Assembly (NCBI GenBank): GCA_964647565.1
Contig: CAZYIM010000016.1
Span: 1 to 57,539, forward strand
Source of the DNA: an uncultured Methanosarcinales archaeon
Lineage (GTDB): Archaea; Nanobdellota; Nanobdellia; Woesearchaeales; CAZYIM01
DNA length: 57,539 bases
Direction of reading: 5' to 3'
The number at the start of each line of letters is the position of its first letter. Within the stretch, counting starts at the first letter, position 1. The translations under genes and the position numbers were made by a program. This document shows positions 14,518 through 41,476 of this stretch, piece after piece. The notes under the pieces are model-generated. The model saw nothing but the letters and a program-made list of their open reading frames with translations. It did not search any database and was not told the origin of the DNA.

Positions 14518-14523
14518 GTAATA

Positions 14524-16632: not shown

Positions 16633-16633
16633 T

Positions 16634-21959: not shown

Positions 21960-21963
21960 TTTT

Positions 21964-24009: not shown

Positions 24010-24989
24010 AATGAGATCCTCCTCTTCTTGGTTTGGGATTCTTTAGCAGCAAGGACAACATCTAATGCCCTTATACCTTCAAAAATATCCTGTTCGGGTT
24101 CTATGTCCTCATTTAGACAAGCTAAAAAGTGTTTGAACTGTTCTATGTACATTTGGTTAACATCATATTTTTTATCAAGTATGAGAGTCTTCCATCCTTG
24201 GGAATCAATAAATAATCTTATCTCAGGTTTATGATAGTTCCATTCAATGATTCCCTTTTCTCCAACAATCCTGCAACCCCTAGTATATTCTGTTTGCAGG
24301 TTATCCATGTGAACCTCACCCATAACTCCCTGTTTGAACTTAAGGGTTAAGGATGCATAATCTTCTGTGTCTGTTTCGAGATTACTGATATGATTTATAT
24401 ATGCCTGGACTTCAGATACCTCGCCAAAAAGACTTTTAAGATAGTCTATCTCATGGATGGCATCAAGTACCACACCGCCTCCCATCGCTCTACTTGCACT
24501 ATATACCTTCCGGTAATCTCTTCCTGGCCTGCAATAAGGCAGATAAAAACCGACCTGCGCCTGAACAAACCAGATTTTTCCAATCACTTGCTTATCTAAA
24601 AGTTCTTTTATTTTTTTTATACCTTGATGAAATCGCATATTGCATCCCACCAATGTGAGAACAGGGTGATCCTTTGCGGTTTTGAATACAGAATCTCTTG
24701 TCTCTTTATCGTGCGCAACAGGTTTTTCAACAAATACAGGTTTTTCATGCTCTAAGGCTTTGATAAGTTGAGGCGCGTGCAAGCTGGTGGGAGAACATAT
24801 GATTACAACATCACAATCTTCCAAGTATTGTTCATATTCAAGGCAAGTCTTAATTTTATAGTCTTTCTTGACCTGATCAAGCATTTTTTGATCTGGATCA
24901 CTAGCAATAATATCTTTCTGGCCCAGGCTGATCAGGTTTCTGATATGTCTCTTACCTATTGATCCGCATCCAACCACTAAAAATTTCAT
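24006..24989 (-). CDS. Gfo/Idh/MocA family oxidoreductase
   Basis: VVGCGSIGKRH, FVEKP, GGGVVLDAIHEID. Confidence 0.92.
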   Translation of the reverse strand: MKFLVVGCGSIGKRHIRNLISLGQKDIIASDPDQKMLDQVKKDYKIKTCLEYEQYLEDCDVVIICSPTSLHAPQLIKALEHEKPVFVEKPVAHDKETRDSVFKTAKDHPVLTLVGCNMRFHQGIKKIKELLDKQVIGKIWFVQAQVGFYLPYCRPGRDYRKVYSASRAMGGGVVLDAIHEIDYLKSLFGEVSEVQAYINHISNLETDTEDYASLTLKFKQGVMGEVHMDNLQTEYTRGCRIVGEKGIIEWNYHKPEIRLFIDSQGWKTLILDKKYDVNQMYIEQFKHFLACLNEDIEPEQDIFEGIRALDVVLAAKESQTKKRRISL

Positions 24990-24994: not shown

Positions 24995-25753
24995 TTAACC
25001 TTCTCTTACGTTTAATCCGTGTACTTTGAGGAATCTCATGGCCTTGATAAGGCTTTGGTCTGTAAAGTTGAAGATGCTGCTTGCTGCTACTGCAGATGCA
25101 CCTGCCTTGGTAAGTGCATCCTGAAAATCATCTAGGGTGCCTGCACCTCCATTGGCGATGACTGGAATATTGACAGCCTGAGAGATGGCTTTAACCAACT
25201 CCAGATCATATCCTTCCATGGTACCTTCGTTATCTATTGAAGTGATAAGGATCTCCCCTGCACCAAGTTCGGTTACTTTTTTTGCCCATGTAATAGCATC
25301 TAGACCTGTTGTTTTCTTTCCATTATGGGTGCAAACCTCATACTTGTCTCCCTTTTTTTTGGCATCAATCGATATGACAATACATTGGCTGCCGAACATA
25401 TTCGCAGCTTCTTTGATAAAATTAGGGTTGTCAACAGCTGCTGCATTGATAGAGACCTTATCTGCACCTGCTGCAAGCAGATTGTTAATATCCTGGACAG
25501 TGCGCACGCCGCCCCCGAGAGTCAAGGGCATGAAGCACTCTTTGGTCACTTCTTCTATTACACTAATCAAGGTCTGTCTGTTCTCGGTACTTGCATCAAT
25601 ATCAAGGAATATGAGTTCGTCTGCTTTTTGGGCATCATAGATTTTGGCTTGGGTTGTAGGATAGCCAACATCTCTGTATTTGCCAAATTGGATTGGCTTC
25701 ACCAGCCTACCATTTTTCAACAGAAGGACAGGAATCAATCTTTGCTTAAGCAT
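24995..25753 (-). CDS. HisF-like (WbuZ/AglZ-type) ammonia-channel subunit
   Basis: RLIPVLL, DELIFLDI, GGGVR, GADKVSIN, GAGEILITSID; clustered with the sugar amidotransferase. Confidence 0.88.
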   Translation of the reverse strand: MLKQRLIPVLLLKNGRLVKPIQFGKYRDVGYPTTQAKIYDAQKADELIFLDIDASTENRQTLISVIEEVTKECFMPLTLGGGVRTVQDINNLLAAGADKVSINAAAVDNPNFIKEAANMFGSQCIVISIDAKKKGDKYEVCTHNGKKTTGLDAITWAKKVTELGAGEILITSIDNEGTMEGYDLELVKAISQAVNIPVIANGGAGTLDDFQDALTKAGASAVAASSIFNFTDQSLIKAMRFLKVHGLNVREG

Positions 25754-26363
25754 TTTCTCCAAAATTTTCCAGGATCTTCAGTCCTTTGTCCTGACTTTTT
25801 TCAGGATGGAACTGAGCTGCATAAATATTGCCTTTGTTCAGGGTTGATACAAACCTCTCTCCATAGTCACAGTAAGAGGTGGTAATATCTTCATTTTCAT
25901 TAGGCATAACATGATAGCTGTGCACGAAATAAAAATCAGATCCGTCAGGGATATCTTTGAGGATGACGTCTTCTTTGACAATGTTAATATTGTTCCAGCC
26001 AATGTGAGGGACTTTAATGTCCTTGGGATCTGGCCTAAACAGTTTGACATCTGCATCTATGAAACCCAAGCCTTCGTGCTGACCGCCTTCTTCACTGCTC
26101 TTGGCAAGCAGCTGCATGCCCAGACATATGCCTATAAGAGGCTTTTTCTTATTGAGTACCTCATCACTAAGCAATTCAATTAGCTTGAATTTTTTCAGGT
26201 TGTTCATGCCATCCCTAAATGCGCCTACACCTGGTAGCAATAGCTTTTCAGCATTCCTGATATCTCCCTCTTTTCGTGATATGATAGCTTCAAAACCCAG
26301 AAACTCAAGAGCATTCTTTACAGAGCGAACATTACCCATTCCATAATCTATAATGACTATCAT
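25746..26363 (-). CDS. HisH-like (WbuY/AglY-type) glutaminase
   Basis: DYGMGN, LPGVG, GICLGMQ, PHIGWN, YFVHSY, QFHPEKS. Confidence 0.9.
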   Translation of the reverse strand: MIVIIDYGMGNVRSVKNALEFLGFEAIISRKEGDIRNAEKLLLPGVGAFRDGMNNLKKFKLIELLSDEVLNKKKPLIGICLGMQLLAKSSEEGGQHEGLGFIDADVKLFRPDPKDIKVPHIGWNNINIVKEDVILKDIPDGSDFYFVHSYHVMPNENEDITTSYCDYGERFVSTLNKGNIYAAQFHPEKSQDKGLKILENFGENA

Positions 26364-27490
26364 TCTTTAAGCTGCCAATCCTTTTGATCCTCAAGCTCCT
26401 CGCCTTGTTCTATGTTTTCAGCATCGAACTTATGGGGCTTTATTACATGTTTTAAAGCAATATCCATAAATTCTTCTTCAGTCATATCCATGATCTTCAG
26501 GAAATAATCCAGGCTTTTAGGTCGCTTGCCTTCATATTTCTTAACAAGTTCCATTGCTTTTTCCCGGGTCATCCTGTTGTGCCTTATATCGATGGAGGTT
26601 AGGTGTGTAGCCCTTGCAAAACCTCGTTTAATAAACTTGAGCCAATCTCTTACACCTGTCAGTTTACATTCAACTTTCTCATAGTAGTATTCTGGAGGTA
26701 CGCCTTCTGTCCTGTCGCCCATCCATCCCAGTTCTTTTCTGATCAGATCTGACTGTTTTTTGGTGTCCCATTTGATAAAGCTTCCAAGATGGATTGCGCG
26801 AACCTTCTTTTCCCTTATCTCTTTTGCAGTTGTAAACGTGAAAGGTGCAAGGTCTCTAAGATCAGCGTCAATCATGCCTGCCATATCCTCTGCACTTATA
26901 CCTAAATTACCACTCATCCTGTTAAGCTTTTTCTCACCAACATCATCATCCTCACCATAACCATAATAGCTAGTGTATTCTGCAGAAGATTCCCCATAGA
27001 TCAATAGGGGGATGTTGTGCCTGACTGCGATCTGTATTGGATACGAGGTGATGCCGAGATGGCAGTGCCAACAGAAATCACCTTTTCTTAGAAGAGACTC
27101 GAGCATCAGTTTCTTCACTATCTGCCAGCTAGGTCTGAAGATGTGAAGGTCAACACCAAGTTTGTTTAGCACTTTTTCTCGTGCTTTGATGTGGTCGGGT
27201 CTGAACAGATGATGATCAAAACAGACTGCTAAAGGTTTGAGGCCAAGTTCTTTTACAACATAGTAAAGTTGGAAAGTTGAGTCCTTACCCCCACTAAAAG
27301 GGATGATACAATCATATTCTCCTTTGCCCTTATATTCATTGACTAATGCCTGCATTTCTTTTTTCTTAGCTTCCCAGTCAATGTTATCTCTCTTTGCCTC
27401 AATTTGCCTACAAACATTACATACTCCTTTTTCATCAAAAAGCAGTGTTTCCTGGGTTTCAGGTGTTACACATTTACTACATCTTTTCAT
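26360..27490 (-). CDS. N-acetyl sugar amidotransferase (WbuX/PseA/AglX family)
   Basis: CSKC..CNVC, YDCIIPFSGGKDS PP-loop, CWHC, YGE, KRGFARAT. Start moved to ATG 27490. Confidence 0.9.
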   Translation of the reverse strand: MKRCSKCVTPETQETLLFDEKGVCNVCRQIEAKRDNIDWEAKKKEMQALVNEYKGKGEYDCIIPFSGGKDSTFQLYYVVKELGLKPLAVCFDHHLFRPDHIKAREKVLNKLGVDLHIFRPSWQIVKKLMLESLLRKGDFCWHCHLGITSYPIQIAVRHNIPLLIYGESSAEYTSYYGYGEDDDVGEKKLNRMSGNLGISAEDMAGMIDADLRDLAPFTFTTAKEIREKKVRAIHLGSFIKWDTKKQSDLIRKELGWMGDRTEGVPPEYYYEKVECKLTGVRDWLKFIKRGFARATHLTSIDIRHNRMTREKAMELVKKYEGKRPKSLDYFLKIMDMTEEEFMDIALKHVIKPHKFDAENIEQGEELEDQKDWQLKE

Positions 27491-27509: not shown

Positions 27510-28895
27510 TTAGTTGTCTGATAAGTTAAAAGCATTTATAATGTTTTCCACTAGCATGGCTATGGTCATAGGACCTATCCCTCCAGGAACTGGTGTTATG
27601 TACGAAGTCTTTTTCTTGACTTGCTCAAAGTCCACATCTCCAACCAACTTGTTATCTTTTTTAGATGTGCCTGCATCAATCACAACAGCACCTTCTTTGA
27701 CATAGTCCTCTGTTATCAGATGAGGTACGCCTGTAGCACTTATTAGTACATCGGCTTTCCTAGTCTTGCTCTTGATATCCTTGGTAAACTCATCGCAGAT
27801 AGTTACATTGAGTTTCCTGTTCTTTAGCATGATTGCTAAGGGTTTGCCAACTAATCTGCCGTGGCCGACTAGGATTATGTGTTTGTCTTTAAGCTTGATA
27901 TCATAGTATGTCAGCAGAGTTATTATGCCTTTTGGAGTGCAGCAGACTAGGATTTCATCACCTTGTTCCAGCTTTTTCATGCTGGCGACAGAAAGACCAT
28001 CGACATCCTTTTCTAGAATTACAGCATTAATGATTTTATCAGTGTTAAGATGCTTGGGTAATGGAAGCTGTACAAGTATGCCTGTGATAGTCGAATTCTG
28101 GTTGAGTGTTCGTATTTTATTGATAATACTTTCTTCATTACTATCCTGCGGAAACTTGATAAGCTCAAAAGCAATGCCTATATCTTCGCAAACCTTACCT
28201 TTTCTCTTGACATAGGCCTCTGAAGCCGGATCAGTACCTACTAGTATGACAGCGAGCTTGGCCTTTATTCCTTGCTCTTTTATCTCCTGTTTCAGATTTT
28301 CAATAATTTCAGAAGACACCTTTCTGCCGTCCATTAGCTTGGCTGATTTTTCAACTGTTCTCTTATCTGTGATGATTTTACCCGCCTGTTGATCATGCTC
28401 CTCTATCTGTACCTTTTCTACTAGTTGGAAATCATAGGCAAGACAGATAGTCATAATTTCAGGATGGTGGGCCAGTAACCTGTCATAATAGCCTGCACCT
28501 CTTCCAAGCCTGTTGCAATGGAGGTCACATCCGACGCAGGGCAGGATAATCATTTCTAGTTCCTCCACATTTATGGTTAATGAACTTTCTTTTGGCTCCA
28601 TAATTCCAAAACTTCCTTTTTCCAACTCATCTGCAGAGAGAATTTCCTTGAATTCGAGTTGTTCATCCATAACTCTTGGTAGAAAAACTCTTTTTCCATA
28701 TTTTATAAGTTCAGGGATTAGCTCTTTTGTTGAAACCTCGTTGTCTTTTGGAAAATAGATGGCAATCTTGCTAGATTTTTTGACTTCATTACATTTTAGA
28801 AGTTTTTCTATAATATTTCTTGATCTTTTTATAATTTCCTCACTTTCAAGCTGATTTCTTTGCTCAATAAGCTGCTTTCTTAAAACACCCTTCAT
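27510..28895 (-). CDS. folD: Fusion: 5-formyltetrahydrofolate cyclo-ligase + methylene-THF dehydrogenase/cyclohydrolase
   Basis: N-terminal NEV, FGIMEP, NRLGRGAGYYDR, EEHD; from about 28340 MDGRK, ILVQLPLP, KDVDG, CTPKG, VGKP, GDVD, TPVPGGIGPMT. Start moved to ATG 28895. Confidence 0.92.
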   Translation of the reverse strand: MKGVLRKQLIEQRNQLESEEIIKRSRNIIEKLLKCNEVKKSSKIAIYFPKDNEVSTKELIPELIKYGKRVFLPRVMDEQLEFKEILSADELEKGSFGIMEPKESSLTINVEELEMIILPCVGCDLHCNRLGRGAGYYDRLLAHHPEIMTICLAYDFQLVEKVQIEEHDQQAGKIITDKRTVEKSAKLMDGRKVSSEIIENLKQEIKEQGIKAKLAVILVGTDPASEAYVKRKGKVCEDIGIAFELIKFPQDSNEESIINKIRTLNQNSTITGILVQLPLPKHLNTDKIINAVILEKDVDGLSVASMKKLEQGDEILVCCTPKGIITLLTYYDIKLKDKHIILVGHGRLVGKPLAIMLKNRKLNVTICDEFTKDIKSKTRKADVLISATGVPHLITEDYVKEGAVVIDAGTSKKDNKLVGDVDFEQVKKKTSYITPVPGGIGPMTIAMLVENIINAFNLSDN

Positions 28896-28982
28896 CTCGA
28901 GAATAATGAATAGCCATGATTTTATTAAGGTTTTGAAATTTTCTAGAGAAAATTTATAAATTAAACGCCAACTGCCATTGTC

Positions 28983-29609
28983 ATGCGTGCGCAAGACAAG
29001 ATACTGGTTATGTTAAGCGTCTTTGTAACAGCTTTGATTTGCTCTAATCTTCTTGGCAGTAAAATAACTGTGATTCTGGGAGTTCCTGTATCAGTGGGTA
29101 TATTTGCTTACCCTATAACGTTTCTTATGACTGATATGGTGGAGGAGGTCTATGGAAGAAAAAAGACAAAACTCTTTATCATAGGAGGCGTCCTAGCTTT
29201 ACTATTAACCCTTGTACTGACTTTCCTTGGTAAGATTCTGCCTCCTGCTGGCTTTTACAAGTTTAATGATGCCTATGTAACTATATTTTCAAACTCCATC
29301 AGGATTATCATAGCTAGCTTAGTGGCTTTCTTTTTGAGCCAGATTCATGATATTTGGGCATTCAACTTCTGGAAAAAAAAGACCAAAGGTCGTTTTTTGT
29401 GGCTTAGAAACAATCTCTCTACTGCTGTAAGTCAATTTATTGATACCACTATTTTTATGTTTATTGCGTTCTATGCAATAACTCCCGACTATACTGCTGC
29501 CAAGATGTTTGCTATGATTGTACCCTATTGGCTGTTGAAGGTCTTGTTTGCAATCTTTGATACACCTTTGTGTTACTTAGGTGTCAAGTGGTTGAGAAAG
29601 GATACTTGA
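28983..29609 (+). CDS. YhhQ/Vut_1 family (queuosine-precursor) transporter
   Basis: SNLLGSK, YPITFLMTD..EVYG, RIIIASLVAF..SQ, LWLRNNLST..SQFIDT, DTP. Confidence 0.9.
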   Translation: MRAQDKILVMLSVFVTALICSNLLGSKITVILGVPVSVGIFAYPITFLMTDMVEEVYGRKKTKLFIIGGVLALLLTLVLTFLGKILPPAGFYKFNDAYVTIFSNSIRIIIASLVAFFLSQIHDIWAFNFWKKKTKGRFLWLRNNLSTAVSQFIDTTIFMFIAFYAITPDYTAAKMFAMIVPYWLLKVLFAIFDTPLCYLGVKWLRKDT

Positions 29610-30862
29610 GAATCAAGGAACTCTTTTACTTCTCCTGCTACAAACAAGGAACCTGTGATTATAACAGCATCGTTTTTTCCTGCTTGTTTTAAAGAGTAGC
29701 TAACAGCTGCACTAACTTTCCTTTTTTCAATTATGTGCTTACAATGGGGGCTGGCTATTTTTTTCAGCAGTTTAGTATCAGTTCCTCTGTATTGGGCCTG
29801 GCAGATTATGAGTTGATCAGCAATTCCTGCTAAGATAGGCACCATTTTTGTCATGTCCTTATCGTCAGATATGCCTAGAACCAACGTTATTTTATCATAC
29901 TGCTTGAGTTGATTTTGGATGTAATTTTTCAAAAGCTTGAATCCTTCTATTGTATGAGAGCAGTCCAGTATGACAAGTGGTGTTTTCTTAACTATCTCGA
30001 GTCGGGCGGGCCATTCTGTTTTATCTATGCTCTTGATAATAGTCTTTTTATCAATGCCAAGAATCTCACTGGTTAGTATGGCTGATGCAATATTAAACAA
30101 TTGATGTTTGCCTAATAATTGGGTTGATATATTATATTTATTCTTGGCAGTTACCATTACTGCAGTTTGAGAATCCAGATATTTTTTGTTATGTCGTATC
30201 TTGACGAGTTTATGAACCTCGAACAGCTTAGCATTTCTTTTTTTGCTCTCATCTTTAATAACCTTCAGGGCATTGCCAGTTGCTGATGTGATGACTGGTG
30301 TGCCTCTTTTTATTATGCCTGCCTTTTCTTTTGCGATCTTTTCAAGAGTATTGCCCAGGTATTTCTGATGTTCCAGAGATATGCTAGTTATAATGGTTGC
30401 TACAGGTATTATGATGTTAGTGGCATCAAGCCTTCCTCCCAACCCTGTCTCAATCACGGCATAATCCACTTTTTTTTGTTTGAAATATAGAAATGCTATT
30501 GCTGTAGTAAATTCAAAGAAACTAGCATCCAGATTGTTTTTTTTTAGATTCTTGTTGATTTCCTCAAACAAACGCAATAATTCCTTATCTTTGATTTCTT
30601 TGTCGTCGACCACAATTCGTTCGTTGAACTTTACAAGATGCGGAGATGTATATAATCCGACTGAATAGCCAGCTTGCTTAAGAATAGTATATATGACCTT
30701 AGCTGTGCTGCCTTTGCCATTAGTGCCTGCTATGTGCAGTGTTCTATAGTTGTCTTGAGGCTTGCCAAGACAGTGCATTAAGGCTTGAATTCTTTCGAGG
30801 CCGAGTTTAATGCCTTTTTTTTCCAATCCATATAACCAAGAAAGTCTTCTGTTGATAGACAT
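29573..30862 (-). CDS. folC: Folylpolyglutamate synthase/dihydrofolate synthase
   Basis: HIAGTNGKGST, YTSPHL..FNERI, ETGLGGRLDATN, EH..LG..IAKEKAGIIK, WPARLE, TGSLF. Confidence 0.94.
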   Translation of the reverse strand: MSINRRLSWLYGLEKKGIKLGLERIQALMHCLGKPQDNYRTLHIAGTNGKGSTAKVIYTILKQAGYSVGLYTSPHLVKFNERIVVDDKEIKDKELLRLFEEINKNLKKNNLDASFFEFTTAIAFLYFKQKKVDYAVIETGLGGRLDATNIIIPVATIITSISLEHQKYLGNTLEKIAKEKAGIIKRGTPVITSATGNALKVIKDESKKRNAKLFEVHKLVKIRHNKKYLDSQTAVMVTAKNKYNISTQLLGKHQLFNIASAILTSEILGIDKKTIIKSIDKTEWPARLEIVKKTPLVILDCSHTIEGFKLLKNYIQNQLKQYDKITLVLGISDDKDMTKMVPILAGIADQLIICQAQYRGTDTKLLKKIASPHCKHIIEKRKVSAAVSYSLKQAGKNDAVIITGSLFVAGEVKEFLDSQVSFLNHLTPK

Positions 30863-30863
30863 C

Positions 30864-32093
30864 TTAATCAAGGGGAAACTGTTTACATAGTTCCAGAACT
30901 TCCTGTTTTATCTTTTCTTTGACAGCTGGATTATCATGATTCTTGACAACAGTTGCAATGAACCTTCCGATCTCTTTCATCTCACTTTCTTTCATACCTC
31001 TTGTTGTGATTGCAGGAGTACCCAGCCTGATGCCGCTTGGATTAAAGGGCGTTTTAGGATCAAAGGGAATCATGTTCTTATTTACTGTTATGCCAACCTC
31101 ATCAAGAGCAGATTCTGCTTCTTTGCCAACACAAAACTTCTGAAGATCTGCGAGGATAAGATGCGTGTCGGTGCCGCCTGTAACCAACCTGATACCTTGA
31201 TTCATCAGCTCATCTGCAAGCGCTCTTGCGTTCTTGACGATTTGTTGAGCATATTGCTTGAACTCTGGTTTGAGGGCTTCTTGAAAAGCTACTGCTTTTG
31301 CAGCATTCACATGGTTGTGAGGGCCTCCCTGCATACCTGGAAAGACAGCTCTGTCAATATCCTTTGCAAATTTTTCTTTGCAAAGTATCATAGCACCCCT
31401 TGGACCTCTTAAGGTTTTATGAGTCGTTGTAGTCACAACATCAGTGAAAGGAAAAGGAGAGGGGTGTACACCACCAACAATAAGACCTGCAATATGAGAT
31501 ATATCTGACATGCTGTAAGCTCCAATCTCATCTGCAATCTCCTGAAAAAGCTTGAAATCTATCAATCTCGGATATGCTGTTGCGCCTGATAGAATAAGTT
31601 TCGGTTTTTCATTTATTGCTAATTTTCTGATCACATCATAATCAAGCAGTTCTGTTTTCTTATCAACACCGTATTGAATGAAATTATATACCTTACCTGA
31701 GAAATTGATAGGATGACCGTGTGTCAGATGGCCTCCATGTGCAAGGTTCATACCCAGAATCTTGTCTCCAATATCCAATAGTGCAAAGTAAACTTCTAAG
31801 TTGGCTGGACTGCCAGAGTATGGCTGTACATTGACATGTTCAGCTCCAAAAAGCTGCTTTGCTCTTTTCATAGCCAGACTCTCAACATCATCAATGTAAA
31901 TATTACCTCCGTAGTATCTTTTTTTGGGATAGCCTTCCGAATATTTATTGGTCAGTACAGAGCCTAATGCTTCTAGTACTGCTTTGCTCACATAGTTTTC
32001 AGAAGGTATAAGCTCTAACCCCTTTTGGAGTCTTTTCTTTTCTAGTTCAATCAGATCAAATATTTTTTTATCCTCTTTTTTTAGGTCTGACAA
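30864..32093 (-). CDS. glyA: Serine hydroxymethyltransferase (bacterial THF type)
   Basis: [57 protein letters not shown] start with GGAGG RBS. Confidence 0.96.
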
Positions 32094-32106
32094 TTTTGTT
32101 TCCTCC

Positions 32107-32838
32107 TTAGTCTTTCATGGCTACTACAAAATACCACGGAAGATATACTGGCCCAGAAAACTGGGCCCTGTTTTCGATTTCTGTTTTCATGGTGAAGGTT
32201 CCCCTGGCACCTTTGGGTGGTTTTGGAAGATCGATTGGAATGTTGAATCTAGCATATTTGAAAGTTGTGTAGCCCTGTTCTGCTAGCTGTTTCTCCATCT
32301 CAGTCAAAGAGAAGACATTAAAGTCTCCATCAGGATCGCTATCCTTGAGTTCGGGATTGGTGTGATCTCTAATATGGATCATAACATCAAGTGGACCTTC
32401 ATAAAACAATGAGTTGAATGCAATCCATCTAGGATTCAACTTGGTTAGAGCATCTAATGCGGGTTTTAGTTGTTTAAAGCAGCAAAATGTATGGACATTA
32501 AATATGCCATCAAATCTGCCGATGAACTCTTCGGGCAGATCGAACCAGTCTGCTGTTGTCAGCGAGACATTATTGAGCTTTAGACTATTGATAACCTCTT
32601 TACCCATGTTGATAAATGCCTGATTGTAGTCTGCGCCCAGAAATGATATGTGTGGATATTTCTTAGCTAGATAAGCAACATTATCTCCCCCGCCTGTGCC
32701 AATATCCAGGATTTCGGTATTGGCTTTGAAGCATCCATTATCATTTAAGAATTTTTCAAATTCTGTGGTGCTATACTTTGGCTTTTCAAACTGCTTTTTC
32801 TGATACTCTACCCCTAATTTCTTATTAATTAAAGTCAT
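32107..32838 (-). CDS. Class I SAM-dependent methyltransferase
   Basis: [21 protein letters not shown]. Confidence 0.8.
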
Positions 32839-32861
32839 AAACTACCCCTCTAAATATGGTT

Positions 32862-33881
32862 TTATTTTTTTAAGCCGTCTGGTGTGTAGACTGCAACAAA
32901 GTTTTTAGCATGGTCTAGATTGGAATGTGGTGTGAATAATCTCTGTCCCGCTCGCATAGCATCAATTATCAGCTTGCCTTCTTCATCTCTAGCATCCTTG
33001 ATCCAAATTCCTCCACCTTTAGCAGCCACAAAGACGCCGTTCTTGGTTTTTCTGTAGATTATGCCTCCCATGAACGGATGAAACGTATCAGGATCCTTGG
33101 TGGGCTCTACTTTTTTAAGGAAGATTCTCTTGCCTTTCCAAAAAGTTGATGCGCCAGGATATGGATCATCAAAAGCGCATATGAATCTGATGATCTCGTC
33201 TTTTTTCCATTCCCAATTGATAAATCCGTGAATGGGTGTGTGTAATCTTGGAAAATAAGTGCTTTTTAGTTCATCTTGAGGTATCAATGTGAACTCTTTA
33301 TGAGCATCTATATCCTTAAGAAATCCTTCCATAAACTGTTTATCAGTTTGGGCAGTGTATTCATCAAAATCAAATGGGAGTTTGCAGTTCTTTGGGAACT
33401 TGAAATGCTGCCTTTTTATAATATCTCCTGTGTCCAGACCACTGTCCACGATGTGTATGAGATTAGCCGCCTCTTTATCATCGTTGAGAATGTTCCAGGA
33501 AGCTCCTCCTGCCCCCCTATTTCTGGGTAGGTCTCTTGAGTGAAGATTAAGCAATCTATTACCGCCAAAGAGATCAATGAACTCTTGTTTAAATATCCAG
33601 GGTGCTCCAAAAGAAAATCCGATAGTAAATTCAGTTATGATATCTCTAACTAGTTTATTGTTGGTGATGTCACTAGTTACTATACATTTTACTCCAAGTC
33701 TCTTTAAGAAATCCGCCAAAGAGATTCCATTTAGCTTTTCGATGATAAGTCTCTTGCTTGTAACCACATAGATTTCGTATTTCTTTTCTTTGGATATTTT
33801 TTGAGCAAGATGTCGTAAAACCCGTCCTCCCCCGAATAGTACGATGGTATCTATCTTGCCAAACTTGATTTTTTTAGTCAT
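32862..33881 (-). CDS. 10-formyl-THF-dependent formyltransferase (Fmt-like fold), probable sugar N-formyltransferase
   Basis: LLNLHSRDLPRNRG and LDTGDII (catalytic N/H/D), INWEW, DPYPGA; directly downstream of pseC. Confidence 0.85.
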   Translation of the reverse strand: MTKKIKFGKIDTIVLFGGGRVLRHLAQKISKEKKYEIYVVTSKRLIIEKLNGISLADFLKRLGVKCIVTSDITNNKLVRDIITEFTIGFSFGAPWIFKQEFIDLFGGNRLLNLHSRDLPRNRGAGGASWNILNDDKEAANLIHIVDSGLDTGDIIKRQHFKFPKNCKLPFDFDEYTAQTDKQFMEGFLKDIDAHKEFTLIPQDELKSTYFPRLHTPIHGFINWEWKKDEIIRFICAFDDPYPGASTFWKGKRIFLKKVEPTKDPDTFHPFMGGIIYRKTKNGVFVAAKGGGIWIKDARDEEGKLIIDAMRAGQRLFTPHSNLDHAKNFVAVYTPDGLKK

Positions 33882-33889
33882 TTTACATT

Positions 33890-35023
33890 CTATGATTTGA
33901 AAAAATTTTTAATTTCACTTATTACTTTTTGCTGTTCCTGATCGGTTAAGCCCGGGTACATAGGTATAGACAATATCCTTTGGTAAAACTTTTCTGCATT
34001 GGGACAAAGGCCTTTCTTGTATCCCAGTTTTTGGTATGCTGGATGCCAATAGACAGGAATATAATGGACCTGACAGTAGATACCCTCAGTTTTGAGATAG
34101 TCATAAAGCCTTTTTCGAGTTTTTCCATCTTTAACTCTTATGACATAAAGATGGTATGGATTGTGCTGATCTGTTTTTTCAAGTAATGGTTTGATGTTAG
34201 GATCGTTCACAAAAGCATTATCATATCTGATTGCAATCTGTCTTCTTCTCTTTACAAATGATTCAAGTTTTTTTAGTTGACTCAATCCAAGGGCGCATTG
34301 AAAGTCAGTAATCCTGTAGTTATAGCTTATGTCGTGGATCTCATAGAACCAACCACCTTCTTTATTATTGATTAACACTTTAGGATCCTTGGTCATGCCA
34401 TGGTTTCTTAGCATCTTAAGCTTTTCATATAACTCTTGGGAATTAGTGGTAATCATGCCCCCTTCACCAGTTGTGATATGTTTTACAGGGTGGAAGCTGA
34501 AGATTGACATATCAGCATATTTGCAATTGCCAATAGGAGTACCATCATATTTACCACCAATAGCATGGCAGGAATCTTCAATTACTATTAGCTTATGTTT
34601 CTTAGCAATATCCCCTATCTGTTTCATATTACAGCTGAGACCAGTATAGTCAACAGGTATGATTACTTTAGTGTCCTTGGTGATATTTGCCTCAATCTTT
34701 TCAGCATCAATTAAACCTTGATCATCAACATCCACAAACACAGGGGTTGCGCCGCAGAATAAGCCGCAGTTGGCAGAAGCCGCAAAAGTCATTGGGCTGG
34801 TTATTAATTCATCACCCTGCTTAAGACCTGCTGCCATAGCTGCAATATGCAGGGCTGCTGTTCCGTTAGAGACTGCTACTGCATATTTAGCTTTGACTGT
34901 CTTTGCAACATTGCTTTCAAATTCATCAACAGCAGGACCTGTAGTTAGAAAATCACTTTTTAGTACTTCATCTACCGCTTGAATATCTTCTTCATCTATC
35001 TTTTGTTTACCGTAAGGGATCAT
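33890..35023 (-). CDS. pseC: UDP-4-amino-4,6-dideoxy-N-acetyl-beta-L-altrosamine transaminase (DegT family)
   Basis: MIPYGKQ.I, SDFLTTGP, SNGTAALH, FSFHPVKHITTGEGG, NYRITD, QVHYIP. Confidence 0.9.
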   Translation of the reverse strand: MIPYGKQKIDEEDIQAVDEVLKSDFLTTGPAVDEFESNVAKTVKAKYAVAVSNGTAALHIAAMAAGLKQGDELITSPMTFAASANCGLFCGATPVFVDVDDQGLIDAEKIEANITKDTKVIIPVDYTGLSCNMKQIGDIAKKHKLIVIEDSCHAIGGKYDGTPIGNCKYADMSIFSFHPVKHITTGEGGMITTNSQELYEKLKMLRNHGMTKDPKVLINNKEGGWFYEIHDISYNYRITDFQCALGLSQLKKLESFVKRRRQIAIRYDNAFVNDPNIKPLLEKTDQHNPYHLYVIRVKDGKTRKRLYDYLKTEGIYCQVHYIPVYWHPAYQKLGYKKGLCPNAEKFYQRILSIPMYPGLTDQEQQKVISEIKNFFKS

Positions 35024-36036
35024 TATAATAGATTGAGGTCCTTAAATATCTTATAAATGTTTTCCTTGCTCACAAGGGTATCCTTAGAACAATAACCTTG
35101 GATCATGTTCTCATCCAGCTTATCTCCATTTTTACAATATTCTATTTTATGCAAATGCTGGTATTTTTGGATAGAAGAAGTTATTACAAACATGTTCTTA
35201 AAGGCAAATGTTCTTGGTACTTCTGATACATTGATCATTTCCTCATGCATTTTTTCGCCTGGTCTGATTCCAATGACCTCAACAGGATTGTGAGCGTTAT
35301 GTTTCTCTTTAAGTATATCAATTAGGTCTGTGATGAGGAATGAGGGTAATTTAGGTACAAATACTTCACCTCCCACACCATATTTGATGGCGTTGAAGAC
35401 AAGGTTTACAGCTTTCATAGGAGATATGATGAACCTAGTCATCCTTTTATCTGTAAGGGGTATCTTTTGTCTGGAAATGATTTTTTCTTCGAAGAAAGGG
35501 ATGACTGAGCCAGTACTCTCTAACACGTTACCATATCTCACACTGGTGAAAATCGTAGGTGCTGGACCCTTGTTGTAATTACTTTCAGTAAAGATTCTCT
35601 CTCCGACAAACTTACAAGCTCCATACGTATTTACTGGTGAACATGCCTTGTCAGATGAGACAAAAACAGCGATTTTTACATTATTTTCGAGACAGGCATC
35701 AACAACATTCATAGTGCCCAGAATGTTGGTCTTGATCACTTCGTCGACATTATATTCGAGGATATCAATTCTTTTCAATGCAGCAGCATGGATTACAATA
35801 TCCGCACCTTTCATTGCCCTCTTAAGACGTTGGATATCCCTAATGTCGCCGATGAGGTTCCTAATTATTTCATTATTGTTGAATTTTTCTTGAAGTCGAT
35901 GATGCTTAACTTCATCTCTGCTGAAAACCCTGATACTATAAGGTTTATATTTTAAAATCTCCCTGACGAGAGCTCTGCCTAAAAAACCTGTACCTCCTGT
36001 GATTAGAATAGTCTTTCCTTTGAATATGTTTTCCAT
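35023..36036 (-). CDS. pseB: UDP-GlcNAc 4,6-dehydratase (inverting), PseB/CapD family
   Basis: ITGGTGFLG, FSRDEVK, HAAALK, SSDKA..PVNTYG..K, VRYGNV..S.GSVIP, MTRF, GIRPGEK. Confidence 0.88.
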   Translation of the reverse strand: MENIFKGKTILITGGTGFLGRALVREILKYKPYSIRVFSRDEVKHHRLQEKFNNNEIIRNLIGDIRDIQRLKRAMKGADIVIHAAALKRIDILEYNVDEVIKTNILGTMNVVDACLENNVKIAVFVSSDKACSPVNTYGACKFVGERIFTESNYNKGPAPTIFTSVRYGNVLESTGSVIPFFEEKIISRQKIPLTDKRMTRFIISPMKAVNLVFNAIKYGVGGEVFVPKLPSFLITDLIDILKEKHNAHNPVEVIGIRPGEKMHEEMINVSEVPRTFAFKNMFVITSSIQKYQHLHKIEYCKNGDKLDENMIQGYCSKDTLVSKENIYKIFKDLNLL

Positions 36037-36121: not shown

Positions 36122-37909
36122 TTACAGTTCTTTGACAATCCGCTGAGCTGTTTGTCCATCTCTTGAGAACAGATAGTCTTTTATGAATTTCTTTCTACCC
36201 TCCTTTAATTTTTCCTGTATTTTTACATCATGTAGAATACTTGTGATAGCTGTTCTTATTTCTTCAATCTCATTAGCAAACAAGGCAGCTTCATACTGTT
36301 TGAATGGGATGGGGAATATCTGGTCATCCTGAATTAAAAGAACAGGAGTGTCGAAGATCATAGATTCTATGTCTACACTTGAGCCTGGGCTGATTAGAAG
36401 ATCTGCTGCTGGCAACAACTGTCTAAGATCAACATCACGCTGGATCATTATATTTTCATAGTTTAGATCATAGAAATTTGTGAATTTTTTCACCATACCG
36501 TTAGGATGTACCTTGACAAAAAGGAATAGATCCTTGTTTTTTTTAACAATCTCTATTAATTTATCAATTCTTCCAACATTGTAGAGGGGTCTGGCTGCAG
36601 TGACATAAACAAGTAGTTTCTTGTTAGTTGGGATGCCCAGTTTATTTCTAAGTTTTTTCTTAGTTTCATGTTTATTAGCCATCTTAAAATAGCTGTCGTA
36701 TCTTGGTTGGCCTACGGTTCGTATATTCTCTGCAGGATAATTGCATTTTTCAATTAGTATCTGTTTTGCATAACTGCCCCCTACAAAGCTGATGTCAGGA
36801 ATGGGTCTCCAGAGCGGACTGCTCTTTTTCTTATTATCTTCCTTGATGTGAGTTGCCACGCAACCAGGATAGATTAGTTCATATTGTAATGCTGCGACTT
36901 GGCATTTATGCTGTTTTGCGTTGATCATAAATCCTTTCCCATAAAAATTATCAGGATGATCCAGCAGTATCAAATCTGGCTTACGGACAATTAATATCCT
37001 TTGCGTGGTGGCTAGACAGTCACCAATCTCATAGCTGAATGCATTGAATACAAATCTGAACCTGTTTTCAACCAGATCGAAAAATTTGATGCCTTTATAT
37101 TCGCAGCTGTCTCTGAATGCTTGGGATAATAGCAGTTGTTTACCCTTTTTCTTAAGAAACTGCCTTACCTCTTCCATTTGCCGAAATGTTTTAAGATTAT
37201 AATACTGCCCAAAAAAGCTCTTGGTATCGTCGCCTTTTTTCATTATATTCAAAATATTCTTCCAACTATGGAACGCCCAAAGCCTATCATAAATAAGAAG
37301 TTCATTGTCCCTGTTTTTACTGTTTAATTCTTTTATGACATCACCAAATATGTAATTGTCCTCGTTTTTTTTCTTTGAGAACTGATCTGAAGACATGGCT
37401 ATTATTCTAATACAGGCTTTGTTTTTATTTTCAATGGTTGATTTTAACATCATCCTTAAGATGAGTCTGCCTTTCAAAAGAAAGTATTCTCTGTTATATT
37501 GATGCAAGACAGGATTAAATTTTTTTTCATTGACAACTTTTATGCCTTGTTGTTTAAATACTCGTTTCATTAGCTCTGCCTTGAATTTATTCTTCAGCAC
37601 TAACTTTACTGTCCGGGGTTTTAGAGTGTTGATGATTTTAAGAGTTGAATCTGTCCAGGAATAGATTTCGCTGAATGCAGGAGCATCTCTTACTTTCATA
37701 GTGCCCCACATGAAGAAATAGTCCATCAAATACCACAGGGTTTGGCCTTTGTAGATGAGCTTGTTTTTAATACCGCTTTTCTTAGCCCACCTTTGGACTT
37801 CTGTAAGATTATAGCCTTCTGAGGAACCACCTGGGTATCTTTCTCCAAAATGCCGCATAGGGATTTTTTTACCGCCCTTAATAATCTCTTCATCATTGAT
37901 TAGAATCAT
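36122..37909 (-). CDS. GT-B-like surface-carbohydrate transferase (glycerophosphotransferase/KpsS-like C-terminus); candidate nonulosonate transferase
   Basis: IRTVGQPRYD, FVKVHP, ADLLIS..SSV..ES..FDTPV, DGQTAQRI. Confidence 0.6.
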   Translation of the reverse strand: MILINDEEIIKGGKKIPMRHFGERYPGGSSEGYNLTEVQRWAKKSGIKNKLIYKGQTLWYLMDYFFMWGTMKVRDAPAFSEIYSWTDSTLKIINTLKPRTVKLVLKNKFKAELMKRVFKQQGIKVVNEKKFNPVLHQYNREYFLLKGRLILRMMLKSTIENKNKACIRIIAMSSDQFSKKKNEDNYIFGDVIKELNSKNRDNELLIYDRLWAFHSWKNILNIMKKGDDTKSFFGQYYNLKTFRQMEEVRQFLKKKGKQLLLSQAFRDSCEYKGIKFFDLVENRFRFVFNAFSYEIGDCLATTQRILIVRKPDLILLDHPDNFYGKGFMINAKQHKCQVAALQYELIYPGCVATHIKEDNKKKSSPLWRPIPDISFVGGSYAKQILIEKCNYPAENIRTVGQPRYDSYFKMANKHETKKKLRNKLGIPTNKKLLVYVTAARPLYNVGRIDKLIEIVKKNKDLFLFVKVHPNGMVKKFTNFYDLNYENIMIQRDVDLRQLLPAADLLISPGSSVDIESMIFDTPVLLIQDDQIFPIPFKQYEAALFANEIEEIRTAITSILHDVKIQEKLKEGRKKFIKDYLFSRDGQTAQRIVKEL

Positions 37910-37928
37910 TTGAGTTGGGAAATTTGTT

Positions 37929-38813
37929 CTATATTTTTAGTTTATCGATTATTGATCCTATTTGTTGATCTCGAGGTCTTGTCTGGCTGTTATATTTTTT
38001 ATTATCCACCGTGAACCAAGGTATCTCAACCAGCTCATTGATATGGATTGCTTCTGGGTGAAAATAAATTCCTTTTTCTCCAAAGGCTTCGCCATGGTCG
38101 GCACTTATGACAACACGTCCATTCAGATGAGGCAATAATTTTTTATCAATCTCATCAAGAACCAATCTTAGATTTTCTCTCCAGGCTGCTTTTACTTCCT
38201 TGACATCCAGATCTCCGAAGAGTAAATTATCCTCGATCTCGAACATGGTTTTCTTGAGTTCAGGATTTTTTATATTGGGGCTGATGAATGGTGCATGTGG
38301 TTGCAGATAATGGATGATTATCCTCTTATTAGGGTATTTAGCTGCCATTTTAAGAGCAGTTTGGGTCATTTCTTTAGGCGGGACAGAGTTTAACTTCTCA
38401 TCCCACCCCGAACCCCATACCTTCTCTACTTTAAAGAATAATTGATTATCAAAGATATGTTTCATTATAGTTTGGGACATCTGTGGGTTGGCAGTGATGT
38501 AAATGATGTCCTCATGTCTCTTGGTGAAGTTCTTTCTTATCCATTCAGGCGTATTGGAGCCAGCAGATATTTTCTTTCTCAGAATACCTTGCAGTTTGCT
38601 CATCCTCTTGAATTCATCAAATCTGCAGGCATCCAAGATAACCAGATATTTCCAGTCTTCCTCAACAATCCTGATGCCCTTATGCTTTATCAGCTTAAAG
38701 ATCAGTCTTAGACTGTTCTCATAGATACCTCTGAGAATCCTTTTAGGCAGATAAGGATCTTTTTTCTTTATGAACATCTTCAATAGCCTGAATTTCTTGA
38801 TAATAGCATTCAT
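37929..38813 (-). CDS. Alkaline-phosphatase/sulfatase-superfamily protein
   Basis: LVILDACRFD, SAGSNTPEW, HYLQPHAPF, ISADHGEAFGE..H. Confidence 0.82.
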   Translation of the reverse strand: MNAIIKKFRLLKMFIKKKDPYLPKRILRGIYENSLRLIFKLIKHKGIRIVEEDWKYLVILDACRFDEFKRMSKLQGILRKKISAGSNTPEWIRKNFTKRHEDIIYITANPQMSQTIMKHIFDNQLFFKVEKVWGSGWDEKLNSVPPKEMTQTALKMAAKYPNKRIIIHYLQPHAPFISPNIKNPELKKTMFEIEDNLLFGDLDVKEVKAAWRENLRLVLDEIDKKLLPHLNGRVVISADHGEAFGEKGIYFHPEAIHINELVEIPWFTVDNKKYNSQTRPRDQQIGSIIDKLKI

Positions 38814-41018: not shown

Positions 41019-41371
41019 TGTTTTTTCTGTTTTTCTTTCTTTGGATTTTCTATTGCTACTTTCCTTACAAGTTTAGTTAAATTCTCCTCCACATTCCTAT
41101 GATATACATAGAGTCTGAATACCATATAGAAAAGCACAACTATACTGATTGCCATGATAAAATCCATTCCCCTACCTATACCAATCAGGTTTGAGATTCT
41201 AGAGGTAACATTAGGGATGAATGCAAAAACTATTGCAGCCACCCAGATGACTATCCAGAAAATTTCCTGCGAAAGCTTGATTTGTTTATCTCTTGCCCTT
41301 AATATAACTCTTGATATTGCAAAGACACTAAACAATAGCACAAAAAATTGAATTGGTAACATAAATATCAC
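41015..41371 (-). CDS. DUF2304-like small membrane protein
   Basis: Three TM helices, IGIGRGMD, C-terminal LTKLVRKVAI. Start uncertain (GTG 41371 or ATG 41362). Confidence 0.8.
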   Translation of the reverse strand: MIFMLPIQFFVLLFSVFAISRVILRARDKQIKLSQEIFWIVIWVAAIVFAFIPNVTSRISNLIGIGRGMDFIMAISIVVLFYMVFRLYVYHRNVEENLTKLVRKVAIENPKKEKQKKQ

Positions 41372-41444: not shown

Positions 41445-41476
41445 CGCGCTACAGTCTCTGATGCTTGAGGGGGAAA

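Follow-up and report, generated by a model that had tools for sequence, protein, structure and literature searches.

Folate one-carbon genes packed beside a putative sugar N-formyltransferase in a nonulosonic acid island of a DPANN archaeon

The window analyzed here, a 57,539-nucleotide stretch of contig CAZYIM010000016.1, holds genes of folate-dependent one-carbon (C1) metabolism among genes for a pseudaminic-acid-like sugar. This raises the question of whether the C1 enzymes are there for the sugar, for the cell as a whole, or by chance. ORFs were called and scanned with Pfam and NCBIfam models (Table 1). The AglB/STT3-type gene, a weak assignment used as context only, would mark the island as an N-glycosylation locus. 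The five genes 5' to pseB encode a DUF2304 protein, a GT4 glycosyltransferase, a second GT1-family protein, a 294-aa protein without a family and a 595-aa BFO_1060-like glycosyltransferase, with overlaps or gaps of at most 85 nt down to pseB. The eight tailoring genes encode a 703-aa HMGL-like aldolase, a class I/II aminotransferase, an ATP-grasp ligase, a methyltransferase, a radical SAM/SPASM protein, an amidohydrolase, a second methyltransferase and a B12-binding radical SAM protein. From their family matches, WbuX, the HisH-like protein and WbuZ are a predicted glutamine-dependent N-acyl sugar amidotransferase forming acetamidino groups. PseB, PseI (TIGR03586, 335.9 bits against a cut-off of 340.25) and PseG (TIGR03590, 82 bits against 153.55) all fall below their NCBIfam cut-offs, so the product may be a sugar other than pseudaminic acid proper.

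Table 1. Predicted features of the window, with family scores in bits
Feature	Coordinates	Strand	Evidence
AglB/STT3-type oligosaccharyltransferase (weak assignment)	41465..44524	+	TIGR04154 archaeo_STT3 62.3, E 3e-17, cut-off 450 not reached
Five co-directional genes 5' of pseB	36122..41371	-	Pfam and NCBIfam scans
PseB-like UDP-GlcNAc 4,6-dehydratase	35023..36036	-	PF02719 291.7; TIGR03589 334.1, below cut-off 407.75
PseC aminotransferase (makes 4-amino sugar)	33890..35023	-	TIGR03588 515.7, above cut-off 423.5
Two-domain N-formyltransferase P0001	32862..33881	-	PF02911 54.5; PF00551 29.1
SAM-dependent methyltransferase	32107..32838	-	PF13847 45.8
GlyA, serine hydroxymethyltransferase	30864..32093	-	NF000586 615.6, cut-off 335
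FolC, folylpolyglutamate/dihydrofolate synthase	29573..30862 (ORF to 30871)	-	TIGR01499 374.8, cut-off 162.65
Vut_1 (COG1738) membrane transporter	28983..29609	+	PF02592 171.1; TIGR00697 175, cut-off 50.95
MTHFS (5-formyl-THF cyclo-ligase)-FolD dehydrogenase/cyclohydrolase fusion	27510..28895	-	PF01812 140.8; PF00763 127.2; PF02882 200.5
WbuX, HisH-like, WbuZ	24995..27490	-	TIGR03573 356.2; TIGR01855 249.9; TIGR03572 318.5
GFO-family oxidoreductase; CMP-sugar synthetase/class-III aminotransferase fusion; PseI/NeuB synthase; PseG-like hydrolase	19939..24989	-	Pfam and NCBIfam
Eight tailoring genes	10491..19902	-	NCBIfam and Pfam scans; same strand, one 306-nt gap

The gene order given in a preliminary description of this DNA was borne out: a tight minus-strand run, pseB-pseC-formyltransferase-methyltransferase-glyA-folC, and a second minus-strand run that begins with the MTHFS-FolD fusion and continues with wbuX-hisH-wbuZ and on to pseI-pseG. 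The spacings reported there also agree with ours. The overlap of pseB and pseC is 1 nt, followed by gaps of 8, 23 and 13 nt; the 1-nt gap between glyA and folC is obtained with the folC ATG at 30862, and the 19-nt gap between the fusion and wbuX with the wbuX ATG at 27490, inside an ORF spanning 26360-27535. What had been overlooked is the plus-strand Vut_1 gene between the runs, which is convergent with folC (29573-29609 is common to both ends) and divergent from the fusion. The fusion ORF spans 27510-28994, but its likeliest start is the ATG at 28895, which gives a protein of 461 aa matching database entry P0243 and an 87-nt AT-rich divergent spacer to Vut_1. Because this convergent gene closes the first run, folD is not expected in the same transcript as the formyltransferase. 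Judged by the spacing, the pse, formyltransferase and folate genes are presumably co-transcribed within their runs, and some regulatory benefit could follow. The C1 enzymes are co-directional with, and packed tightly on, a sugar formyltransferase that stands at the step of PseH.

The preliminary description had seen no GNAT-type PseH, and this was upheld: no GNAT was found among the scanned window ORFs with Pfam or NCBIfam, and in the whole assembly no PseH exceeded its cut-off, the best match scoring 29.8 bits against 93.1. The formyltransferase is single-copy in the assembly by tblastn and has the catalytic triad Asn-His-Asp (N112, H114 and D150). Its AlphaFold2 model (pLDDT 96.2) predicts a fold that matches Fmt and the ArnA N-terminal domain over the whole length (TM 0.72-0.77, about 315 columns). 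Both Pfam domains are common to these proteins, but sequence identity is 17-21%, the window protein is without the dehydrogenase domain, and its context is nonulosonic acid synthesis rather than lipid A (ArnA) or tRNA (Fmt). By sequence, the closest solved structure is that of PseJ (6ci2, E 4.1e-12), with which the N-x-H ... D motif is common (PDB 6ci2, 6ci4). The match covers only residues 81-186, however; PseJ chains are 192-217 aa long against 339 aa for the window protein, whose C-terminal domain (PF02911) is of the Fmt/ArnA type and which belongs to a separate, widespread family. As members of that family are found in nonulosonic-acid clusters at most of 160 loci retrieved, we regard the formyltransferase as a candidate functional replacement for PseH, analogous in function to PseJ. 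PseJ itself acts in place of PseH. It is described as the enzyme that completes the pathway to Pse5Ac7Fo, the counterpart of PseA in the route to the acetamidino form (PMC11040635). An archaeal parallel is Halorubrum sp. PV6, reported to carry 5-N-formyl-legionaminic acid in its glycan and, as in the window, to have its nonulosonic-acid cluster in an AglB-containing region; a predicted formyltransferase, HrrPV6_1050, was included with the leg genes in RT-PCR tests of transcription (PMC6137143). That pathway is of the Leg type with the formyl group at N5, whereas the window is of the Pse type, and a term search of the same paper for 'folate' gave no occurrence. Among the titles and opening lines of abstracts consulted on folate genes, whether in DPANN or in sugar-formyltransferase clusters, the arrangement was not found.

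The reading that we hold to be somewhat probable is that the C1 genes form a mobile module of this lineage, here co-operonic with a sugar N-formyltransferase and shared among several consumers. The window would then be the N-glycan island of a DPANN (Woesearchaeota-type) archaeon that builds a pseudaminic-acid-like nonulosonic acid. PseB and PseC would produce a UDP-4-amino-4,6-dideoxy sugar, to whose 4-amine the two-domain formyltransferase, in place of the missing PseH, would transfer the formyl group of 10-formyl-THF. PseG, PseI and CMP activation would convert the formylated sugar to a 7-N-formyl nonulosonate, with further modification by WbuX/HisH/WbuZ and the other tailoring enzymes. The genome's only C1 enzymes would be transcribed with these sugar genes: GlyA would load a C1 unit from serine onto THF, FolD would oxidize the loaded cofactor to 10-formyl-THF, the cyclo-ligase fused to it would return 5-formyl-THF to the pool, and FolC would retain the cofactor by polyglutamylation. 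ThyX, PurH-type and PurN-like enzymes encoded elsewhere would also draw on the module. Within the order, the glyA-centred module would move and adjoin whichever consumer operon it joined, be it for purines, thymidylate or, here, a formyl sugar.

The neighborhood of glyA was compared in nine relatives. The block was found in purine operons, in an operon with thyX or at other sites, and in none of the nine with pse genes, which argues against a line dedicated to the sugar. Purine examples are purF-purD-PurN/MTHFS-glyA-folD-purM-purL-purQ-purE (G058), purH-purN-folD-glyA ... MTHFS-purD-purF (G003) and purD-MTHFS-glyA-folD-purN (G041); in G005 the order is thyX-glyA-folC, convergent with Vut_1. 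These operons resemble the window in that the same enzymes, including MTHFS fused to a partner, are packed with consumers; there the consumers are PurN/PurH or ThyX, whereas in the window the adjacent consumer is the sugar formyltransferase. As for the formyltransferase itself, no close copy was found among 60 order relatives (best match 26% identity), and matches at E <=1e-20 were limited to two of 400 other genomes from the phylum. In one of these two, G279 (the contig is that of locus L017), it lies in a pse cluster on an 18.6-kb contig without a folate gene. The 160 loci, a few of which are duplicated between two collections, contain pseC in 78 cases, pseI in 74 and wbuX in 64. Homologues of the methyltransferase occur in eight and directly adjoin the formyltransferase in five; that of L137 is 65% identical and overlaps the formyltransferase by 4 nt.

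Could housekeeping C1 genes simply have ended up in a glycan island that rearranges fast, unconnected to the formyltransferase in function or regulation? We consider this unlikely. Folate genes are present in only 2 of the 160 loci, leaving 158 without them, yet the link does recur, as the preliminary description would lead one to expect. In the locus of the closest homologue (L136, 52% identity), folD and the start of the formyltransferase gene share 4 nt, with MTHFS, glyA and folC no more than 10 kb away, even though the gene order differs from that of the window and the GlyA is distant (46% identity, on an outlier branch). A folD fragment follows the formyltransferase in a third locus (L010, titled uncultured archaeon), and in the relative G055 a different Fmt-like formyltransferase precedes glyA-folD. 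The several unrelated neighborhoods of the relatives' C1 genes are what chance would give, but wherever the block is operonic it neighbors folate consumers. Likewise, glyA-folC convergent with Vut_1 is an older block, common to G005 and G039, around which the pse genes may have been inserted; against this stand the 13 nt and 1 nt flanking glyA and the 19 nt after the fusion.

More doubtful is the proposal that the folate genes do supply the formyl group but that the formyltransferase uses a different amine as acceptor. This could be N5 once de-N-acetylated, the product made by the class-III aminotransferase of the CMP-transferase fusion, or a substrate passed on to, or received from, WbuX/HisH/WbuZ. 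Where at least 1.2 kb of sequence 5' of the formyltransferase was available (119 loci), its immediate same-strand upstream neighbor is wbuZ in 26 cases and pseC in 14, but in the window the formyltransferase directly follows pseC. The CMP-transferase/aminotransferase has a homologue in 102 of the 160 loci. A GNAT accompanies the formyltransferase in L136 and L010, and is fused to it in L010, whereas with no PseH-like GNAT found in the present genome the 4-amine would otherwise stay unacylated, and PseJ offers a precedent for 7-N-formylation (PMC11040635).

The composition of the contig agrees with that of its bin (tetranucleotide r = 0.994 against the genome mean; 32nd from the lowest among 41 contigs of at least 20 kb), and positions 24000-38000 are tiled at 99% identity or more by short contigs from four runs of two studies; one of these runs may represent the source sample. 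In the assembly, 2.68 Mb in size and 86.9% complete, glyA, folC and folD with the cyclo-ligase each gave single tblastn matches. FolP, DHFR, MTHFR, FTHFS and ThyA were sought in the assembly and not found. These absences and the only-copy claim are provisional because the assembly is 87% complete. As FolP and DHFR were not found, the folate cofactor is probably salvaged. Other consumers are encoded: a tandem ThyX in one 521-aa ORF (104.6 and 78.9 bits), which needs methylene-THF and has genes for dTMP kinase (tmk) and a dCMP-deaminase-like protein next to it; a PurH-type AICAR formyltransferase domain (136 bits); a PurN-like protein (57.5 bits) in which the N-x-H and D motif is present; and a match to purD. 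Since DNA and purine synthesis must draw on these C1 enzymes as well, the module is probably a shared supply unit beside one consumer rather than a private line, and the interpretation in the preliminary description is supported in part. To our knowledge, archaea do not formylate initiator tRNA. This, the sole copies inside the operon and the failure to find MTHFR or FTHFS are compatible with the earlier proposal that a metabolically reduced archaeon keeps the module mainly or solely for sugar N-formylation, a proposal made very improbable by ThyX and the purine enzymes, by a genome that is the largest of 61 listed for the order, and by relatives that lack the formyltransferase and retain this module to make purines or thymidylate. 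Nor does the label 'bacterial-type' suit the module, as its GlyA groups within DPANN homologues to which it is 70-77% identical. The three domains of the fusion (PF01812/PF00763/PF02882) are combined in 18 further proteins that cover at least 90% of it.

In 4 of 10 genomes the Vut_1 subfamily of the window has folC as its partner, and the convergent folC/Vut_1 pair also occurs in G024, G005 and G039. The protein passes the cut-off of the TIGR00697 model and in this resembles the COG1738/YhhQ (QPTR) preQ0/preQ1 transporters, but in contrast to these its subfamily pairs with folC and not with queuosine genes. Term searches gave no occurrence of 'folC' in PMC5372724 or of 'folate' in PMC11130926. 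The transporter may be an importer of folate or folinate. The genome also encodes QueC and TGT.

Open reading frame listing and Pfam/NCBIfam scans showed that the segment from 27510 to 36036 is coding throughout, in agreement with the preliminary description, and the spacings given there were reproduced: a 1-nt overlap between pseB and pseC, with 8, 23 and 13 nt between the genes that follow. The reported gaps of 1 nt before folC and 19 nt before wbuX hold when the ATG codons at 30862 and 27490, respectively, are taken as the starts. The genes that it listed are all present, but it had overlooked a plus-strand gene for a Vut_1 transporter. This gene converges on folC, closing the first run, and diverges from the gene for a fused 5-formyl-THF cyclo-ligase (MTHFS) and FolD over an 87-nt AT-rich spacer. 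In the same scans, an STT3/AglB-like gene and glycosyltransferases adjoin the island.

Genes of the island and neighboring sugar genes in the window, with profile scores in bits
Feature	Position	Strand	Profile score
PseB-like 4,6-dehydratase	35023-36036	-	PF02719 291.7
PseC	33890-35023	-	TIGR03588 515.7 (cut-off 423.5, passed)
Two-domain N-formyltransferase (FT)	32862-33881	-	PF02911 54.5 (cut-off 21.1); PF00551 29.1 (cut-off 26.1)
SAM methyltransferase	32107-32838	-	PF13847 45.8
GlyA	30864-32093	-	NF000586 615.6
FolC	29573-30862	-	TIGR01499 374.8
Vut_1 transporter	28983-29609	+	TIGR00697 175 (cut-off 50.95)
MTHFS-FolD fusion	27510-28895	-	PF01812 140.8 (cut-off 27); PF00763 127.2; PF02882 200.5
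WbuX, HisH-like, WbuZ	24995-27490	-	TIGR03573 356.2; TIGR01855 249.9; TIGR03572 318.5
Downstream of WbuZ: GFO oxidoreductase, CMP-transferase/class-III aminotransferase fusion, PseI/NeuB, PseG-like, eight tailoring genes	end 10491		
Of these, the fusion: CMP-sugar cytidylyltransferase joined to glutamate-1-semialdehyde-aminomutase-like class-III aminotransferase, 681 aa	21964-24009	-	
Of these, the eight tailoring genes: HMGL-like aldolase (703 aa), class I/II aminotransferase, ATP-grasp ligase, two methyltransferases, radical SAM/SPASM protein, amidohydrolase, B12-binding radical SAM protein	10491-19902	-	
Second sugar-nucleotide set: NTP-transferase, SIS isomerase, UDP-GlcNAc 2-epimerase-like protein, GHMP kinase, HAD phosphatase, epimerase/dehydratase	45489-50742	-	

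To judge from the tailoring genes, the sugar may be decorated in an elaborate way, with acyl or alkyl groups, that has not been described. The second sugar-nucleotide set looks like a pathway to an activated sugar of the heptose type or similar.

Both domains of the formyltransferase (FT, protein P0001) pass the Pfam gathering cut-offs. The catalytic Asn-x-His and Asp are present as N112, H114 and D150, within LLNLHS ... GLDTGD, and D150 is invariant in an alignment of 40 family members (A1). The N/H pair is kept in 27 of the 40; D and M take its place in the remaining 13, a group that may be inactive or doing other chemistry. An AlphaFold2 model built on the 40-sequence alignment (pLDDT 96.2) matched Fmt and the formyltransferase domain of ArnA with TM scores of 0.72-0.77 (3tqq, 5j63 and 2bln at 0.72-0.75, E about 1e-21), and the sugar N-formyltransferases QdtF, WlaRD and FdtF followed close behind. 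The best solved sequence relative is PseJ (E 4.1e-12, over residues 81-186 only). According to the available text of PMC11040635, PseJ is the formyltransferase that completes the Pse5Ac7Fo pathway. Close kinship over the whole length was not found, PseJ chains being 192-217 aa long and FT 339 aa; the context of FT is that expected of a PseJ function, in a pse cluster, 8 nt after pseC and with no PseH above cut-off in the genome. FT belongs to a family separate from PseJ, with 135 proteins at E <= 0.001 that are mostly unnamed or named 'methionyl-tRNA formyltransferase'.

The surroundings of this family were read in 160 loci, 80 from genome contigs and 80 from metagenome contigs, a few of them duplicates (L014/L169, L037/L210 and L028/L190 have identical match tables). 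Homologs of pseC were found in 78 loci, pseI in 74, wbuX in 64, wbuZ in 61 and pseB in 49. The commonest neighbor of FT was the CMP-transferase/aminotransferase, with homologs in 102 of the 160 loci. From these counts, the FT family is a component of nonulosonic-acid clusters. It is spread over many phyla of bacteria and also occurs in some archaea (Micrarchaeota, Methanoperedens, Natronomonas), and no relative was found in viral contigs. We predict that in such clusters of many uncultured bacteria and archaea the role of PseJ falls to this large, uncharacterized two-domain family.

The absence of PseH, noted in the preliminary description, was borne out in a profile search of the 87%-complete assembly, where the best match scored 29.8 bits against a cut-off of 93.1. 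On the NCBIfam equivalog models, PseC scored above its cut-off, with PseB (334.1 against 407.75 bits), PseI (335.9 against 340.25) and PseG (82 against 153.55) below theirs. Since FT lies immediately after pseC and no PseH is found in the genome, the PseC product is, we infer, the most economical assignment for its acceptor. Where at least 1.2 kb lay upstream of FT (119 loci), its immediate upstream neighbor on that strand was wbuZ in 26 and pseC in 14; this frequent wbuZ-FT adjacency makes another acceptor a possible candidate. We predict that glycoproteins from a cell of the Woesearchaeota type carry an N-formylated nonulosonic acid.

The preliminary description had proposed that the folate genes form a self-contained one-carbon (C1) supply, kept by a reduced archaeon mainly for glycan N-formylation. 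In a tblastn search with the window proteins, glyA, folC, the fusion and FT gave one match each in the assembly, as would be expected of the genome's only copies of the folate genes. Three further folate consumers are, however, encoded in the genome. ThyX is a tandem protein of 521 aa (104.6 and 78.9 bits) whose gene adjoins those for dTMP kinase and a dCMP-deaminase-like protein; a 414-aa protein matches the AICAR-formyltransferase half of PurH (136 bits); and a second Formyl_trans_N protein, with the N-x-H and D motif, is PurN-like (57.5 bits in Pfam, 63.5 bits in TIGR00639, below cut-off). Glycan synthesis is therefore not the sole user of the C1 module. Using proteins of a relative in tblastn, we also found matches for purD (32% identity over 420 residues) and for the AIR-synthase family, with no match for purL, purQ or purE. 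Family searches of the same 87%-complete assembly did not find ThyA, FolP, DHFR, MTHFR or formate-THF ligase; all absences are provisional at this completeness. A role of the folate genes in SAM supply for the many methyltransferases is not favored, since MTHFR was not found. Nor is the organism especially reduced: the assembly has 2,676,741 bases in 86 contigs (86.9% complete, 1.85% contaminated), and it is the largest in a sample of 61 genomes of the order, the 60 nearest genomes, all of the same order, ranging from 0.6 to 2.1 Mb. The more striking claim, of a private cofactor line in a reduced cell, is thus corrected.

What the relatives show is a C1 module that is repeatedly packed beside its consumers; in the window's genome, a formyltransferase for a surface sugar is one of these. 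SHMT was found in 32 of the 61 genomes and FolD above its cut-off in 16, both counts including the genome of the window. The surroundings of glyA were read at larger scale in ten cases from nine relatives. Three are purine loci: purF-purD-(PurN/MTHFS fusion)-glyA-folD-purM-purL-purQ-purE in G058 (L131, with the PurN-MTHFS fusion at 8031-9287), purH-purN-folD-glyA ... MTHFS-purD-purF in G003 (L130), and purD-MTHFS-glyA-folD-purN in G041 (L134). In G035 (L132) the order is class-V aminotransferase-glyA-folD, in G015 (L133) simply glyA-folD, and in G055 (L135) an Fmt-like formyltransferase-glyA-folD run is convergent with GT4 genes. G005 (L254) has thyX-glyA-folC convergent with Vut_1 and adjoining nrdD, and G039 (L256) has glyA-folC convergent with Vut_1 and adjoining a flippase and glycan genes. 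In G024, glyA adjoins DeoC, a PIG-L deacetylase and GT4 (L257), and folC is convergent with Vut_1 on a separate contig (L255). These arrangements indicate that the glyA-centered module belongs natively to the order and that it repeatedly shares operons with folate consumers. The window follows the same habit with a different consumer, and the pse genes now surround an older block, the glyA-folC/Vut_1 core. In both the window's genome (contig C13, 28989-30554) and G005 (L254, 12399-13961), ThyX is one chain of some 520 aa that carries two Thy1 domains; the thyX gene of G005 and the start of glyA overlap.

Whether the juxtaposition of FT and the folate genes arose by chance was considered against evidence on both sides. 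Favoring chance, a folate gene occurs in just two of the 160 FT-family loci, the order relatives have no close FT copy (best match 26% identity), and an FT match at E <= 1e-20 was found in only two of 400 other genomes of the phylum. One of these two, G279 (the contig of locus L017), has FT in a pse cluster on an 18.6-kb contig without a folate gene. Against chance, the closest FT homolog of all, in locus L136 (52% over 336 residues), has folate genes close by: MTHFS-glyA, a gene for a membrane protein, and folC, on the other strand, come first. Then follow pseB, genes for an amidase and a WbuX-like protein, and finally folD and FT, with folD (9165-10001) overlapping the FT start at 9998 by 4 nt. 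Locus L010, titled uncultured archaeon, has pseB, pseC, an IS200 transposase, FT, an FT-GNAT fusion and a 104-aa FolD fragment. In G055, a relative from the order, a different Fmt-like formyltransferase precedes glyA and folD in a run that converges on three GT4 genes and is truncated where the contig stops. The window and L136 have the closest FT and a 62%-identical PseB in common, but not close folate genes: the L136 GlyA is 46% identical to that of the window, against 54-70% for the order relatives, forms a long outlier branch in a quick tree and falls in SHMT clusters of mixed eukaryotic and bacterial taxa in the ESM Atlas. This pattern fits independent assembly of the linkage in the two; as the L136 GlyA is on a long branch and the Atlas clusters gave no usable taxon, we make no firm claim.

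Two details of these loci may be added. The gene between glyA and folC in L136 (1811-2560, minus strand) encodes a hydrophobic, multi-pass protein of 249 aa that matches no Pfam family, in the same kind of place as Vut_1 in the window. In L010 (8467-12140), the IS200-type transposase divides pseC from two tandem FT paralogs, the second being the GNAT fusion, of 546 aa.

The folate economy of the organism bears on the role of the block. ThyX regenerates THF rather than dihydrofolate; MTHFS is the entry point of 5-formyl-THF, and the FolD cyclohydrolase converts methenyl-THF to 10-formyl-THF. That FolP and DHFR were not found, that ThyX regenerates THF and that FolC is present together suggest that the organism salvages reduced folate. 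The fusion has an MTHFS domain at residues 35-209 of its long ORF and both FolD domains, with a best NCBIfam FolD equivalog score of 312.8 bits, below the cut-off of 437. It is not unique: 18 other proteins that combine these three domains have 42-55% identity at a query coverage of at least 90%. Fusion forms (P0244-P0261) include a 609-aa DHFR-MTHFS-FolD protein (P0257) and a 680-aa protein joining MTHFS/FolD to Formyl_trans_N (P0259).

The Vut_1 protein passes the COG1738/QPTR family model. COG1738 is described in the available portions of PMC5372724 and PMC11130926 as a heterogeneous family of preQ0/preQ1 transporters with archaeal homologs; term searches of that text gave no instance of 'folC' in the former or of 'folate' in the latter. 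The neighbors of Vut_1 in the window are folC and the MTHFS-FolD fusion, with no Q genes, and the genome encodes QueC (149.3 bits) and TGT (442 bits), so that import of preQ0/preQ1 is not obviously needed. Close Vut_1 orthologs (47-65% identity) occur in nine of the 60 relatives and are convergent with folC in three of these (G024, G005 and G039), or 4/10 counting the window. None of the 19 distant copies (24-40% identity) in the 60 relatives has a folate gene within 1.5 kb. Five relatives have both kinds. The pairing was assessed in the window and in loci L226, L227, L231 and L254-L256. That this Vut_1 is a folate or folinate importer is a reasonable lead rather than a result; it would place a candidate folate importer in a family of transporters linked until now with queuosine precursors alone. 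A broader and rather doubtful reading is that the whole block is a folate salvage-and-activation cassette, mobile between C1 sinks, for an archaeon unable to make folate. The folC-paired Vut_1 would bring in a reduced folate, for instance 5-formyl-THF. FolC would then trap this folate, and two coupled steps on the fusion would yield 10-formyl-THF for the sugar FT; the THF-regenerating ThyX would make DHFR unnecessary, and in these small-genome archaea the unit would dock onto whatever pathway is the chief C1 sink.

A formyltransferase in the Pse pathway is already known from PseJ, as are C1 genes within purine operons, which were seen here in the relatives. An archaeal Leg cluster with a predicted formyltransferase gene, AglB in the region and a 5-N-formyl product is likewise known from the available text of PMC6137143. 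In searches directed at folate genes of DPANN or of clusters with sugar formyltransferases, and judged by titles and abstract openings, we found no description of C1 enzymes embedded in a nonulosonic-acid operon; nor did we find one of the FolD/FT translational overlap of L136 or of the folC/Vut_1 pair. The finding is a cofactor-supply module beside its consumer, in a new pairing. Small-genome archaea retain very few biosynthetic genes, and the placement of their folate enzymes therefore shows what these are for. The main value lies in the testable formyl-sugar prediction, the uncharacterized FT family and the transporter lead.

The tetranucleotide profile of the window fits that of the bin (r 0.994). 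A signal of recent transfer was sought in the same profiles and rejected: neither the pse/GT block (r 0.98) nor the folate block (r 0.946, over just 4.6 kb) is clearly atypical. Among the matches listed, short Logan contigs span the pseC/FT, FT/methyltransferase, fusion/Vut_1 and Vut_1/folC junctions; as one run may be the source sample, they lend the assembly weak support. Loose ends on single contigs, also among the matches listed, lie at 26186, 27469, 29547, 34551/34584 and 37831, where single low-depth contigs (runs X3 and X4 at 27469 and 29547) continue with unlike sequence; they suggest that strains differ, or that the assembly graph branches, at the borders of wbuX with the fusion and of Vut_1 with folC. 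The GlyA of the window is 70-77% identical to proteins named Woesearchaeota, Pacearchaeota, Aenigmatarchaeota, Micrarchaeota and Nanoarchaeota, together with one Thermoplasmata and one 'bacterium', and in the quick tree it nests among them; in the same tree, a branch of zero length separates the GlyA of the order relative G047 from a protein named Woesearchaeota. The nearest homologs, at 73-77% identity, are P0124, P0125, P0127, P0130 and P0131, and their contigs, to judge from equal lengths, apparently also hold the nearest MTHFS-FolD fusions (P0246, P0248, P0247, P0245 and P0249, respectively).
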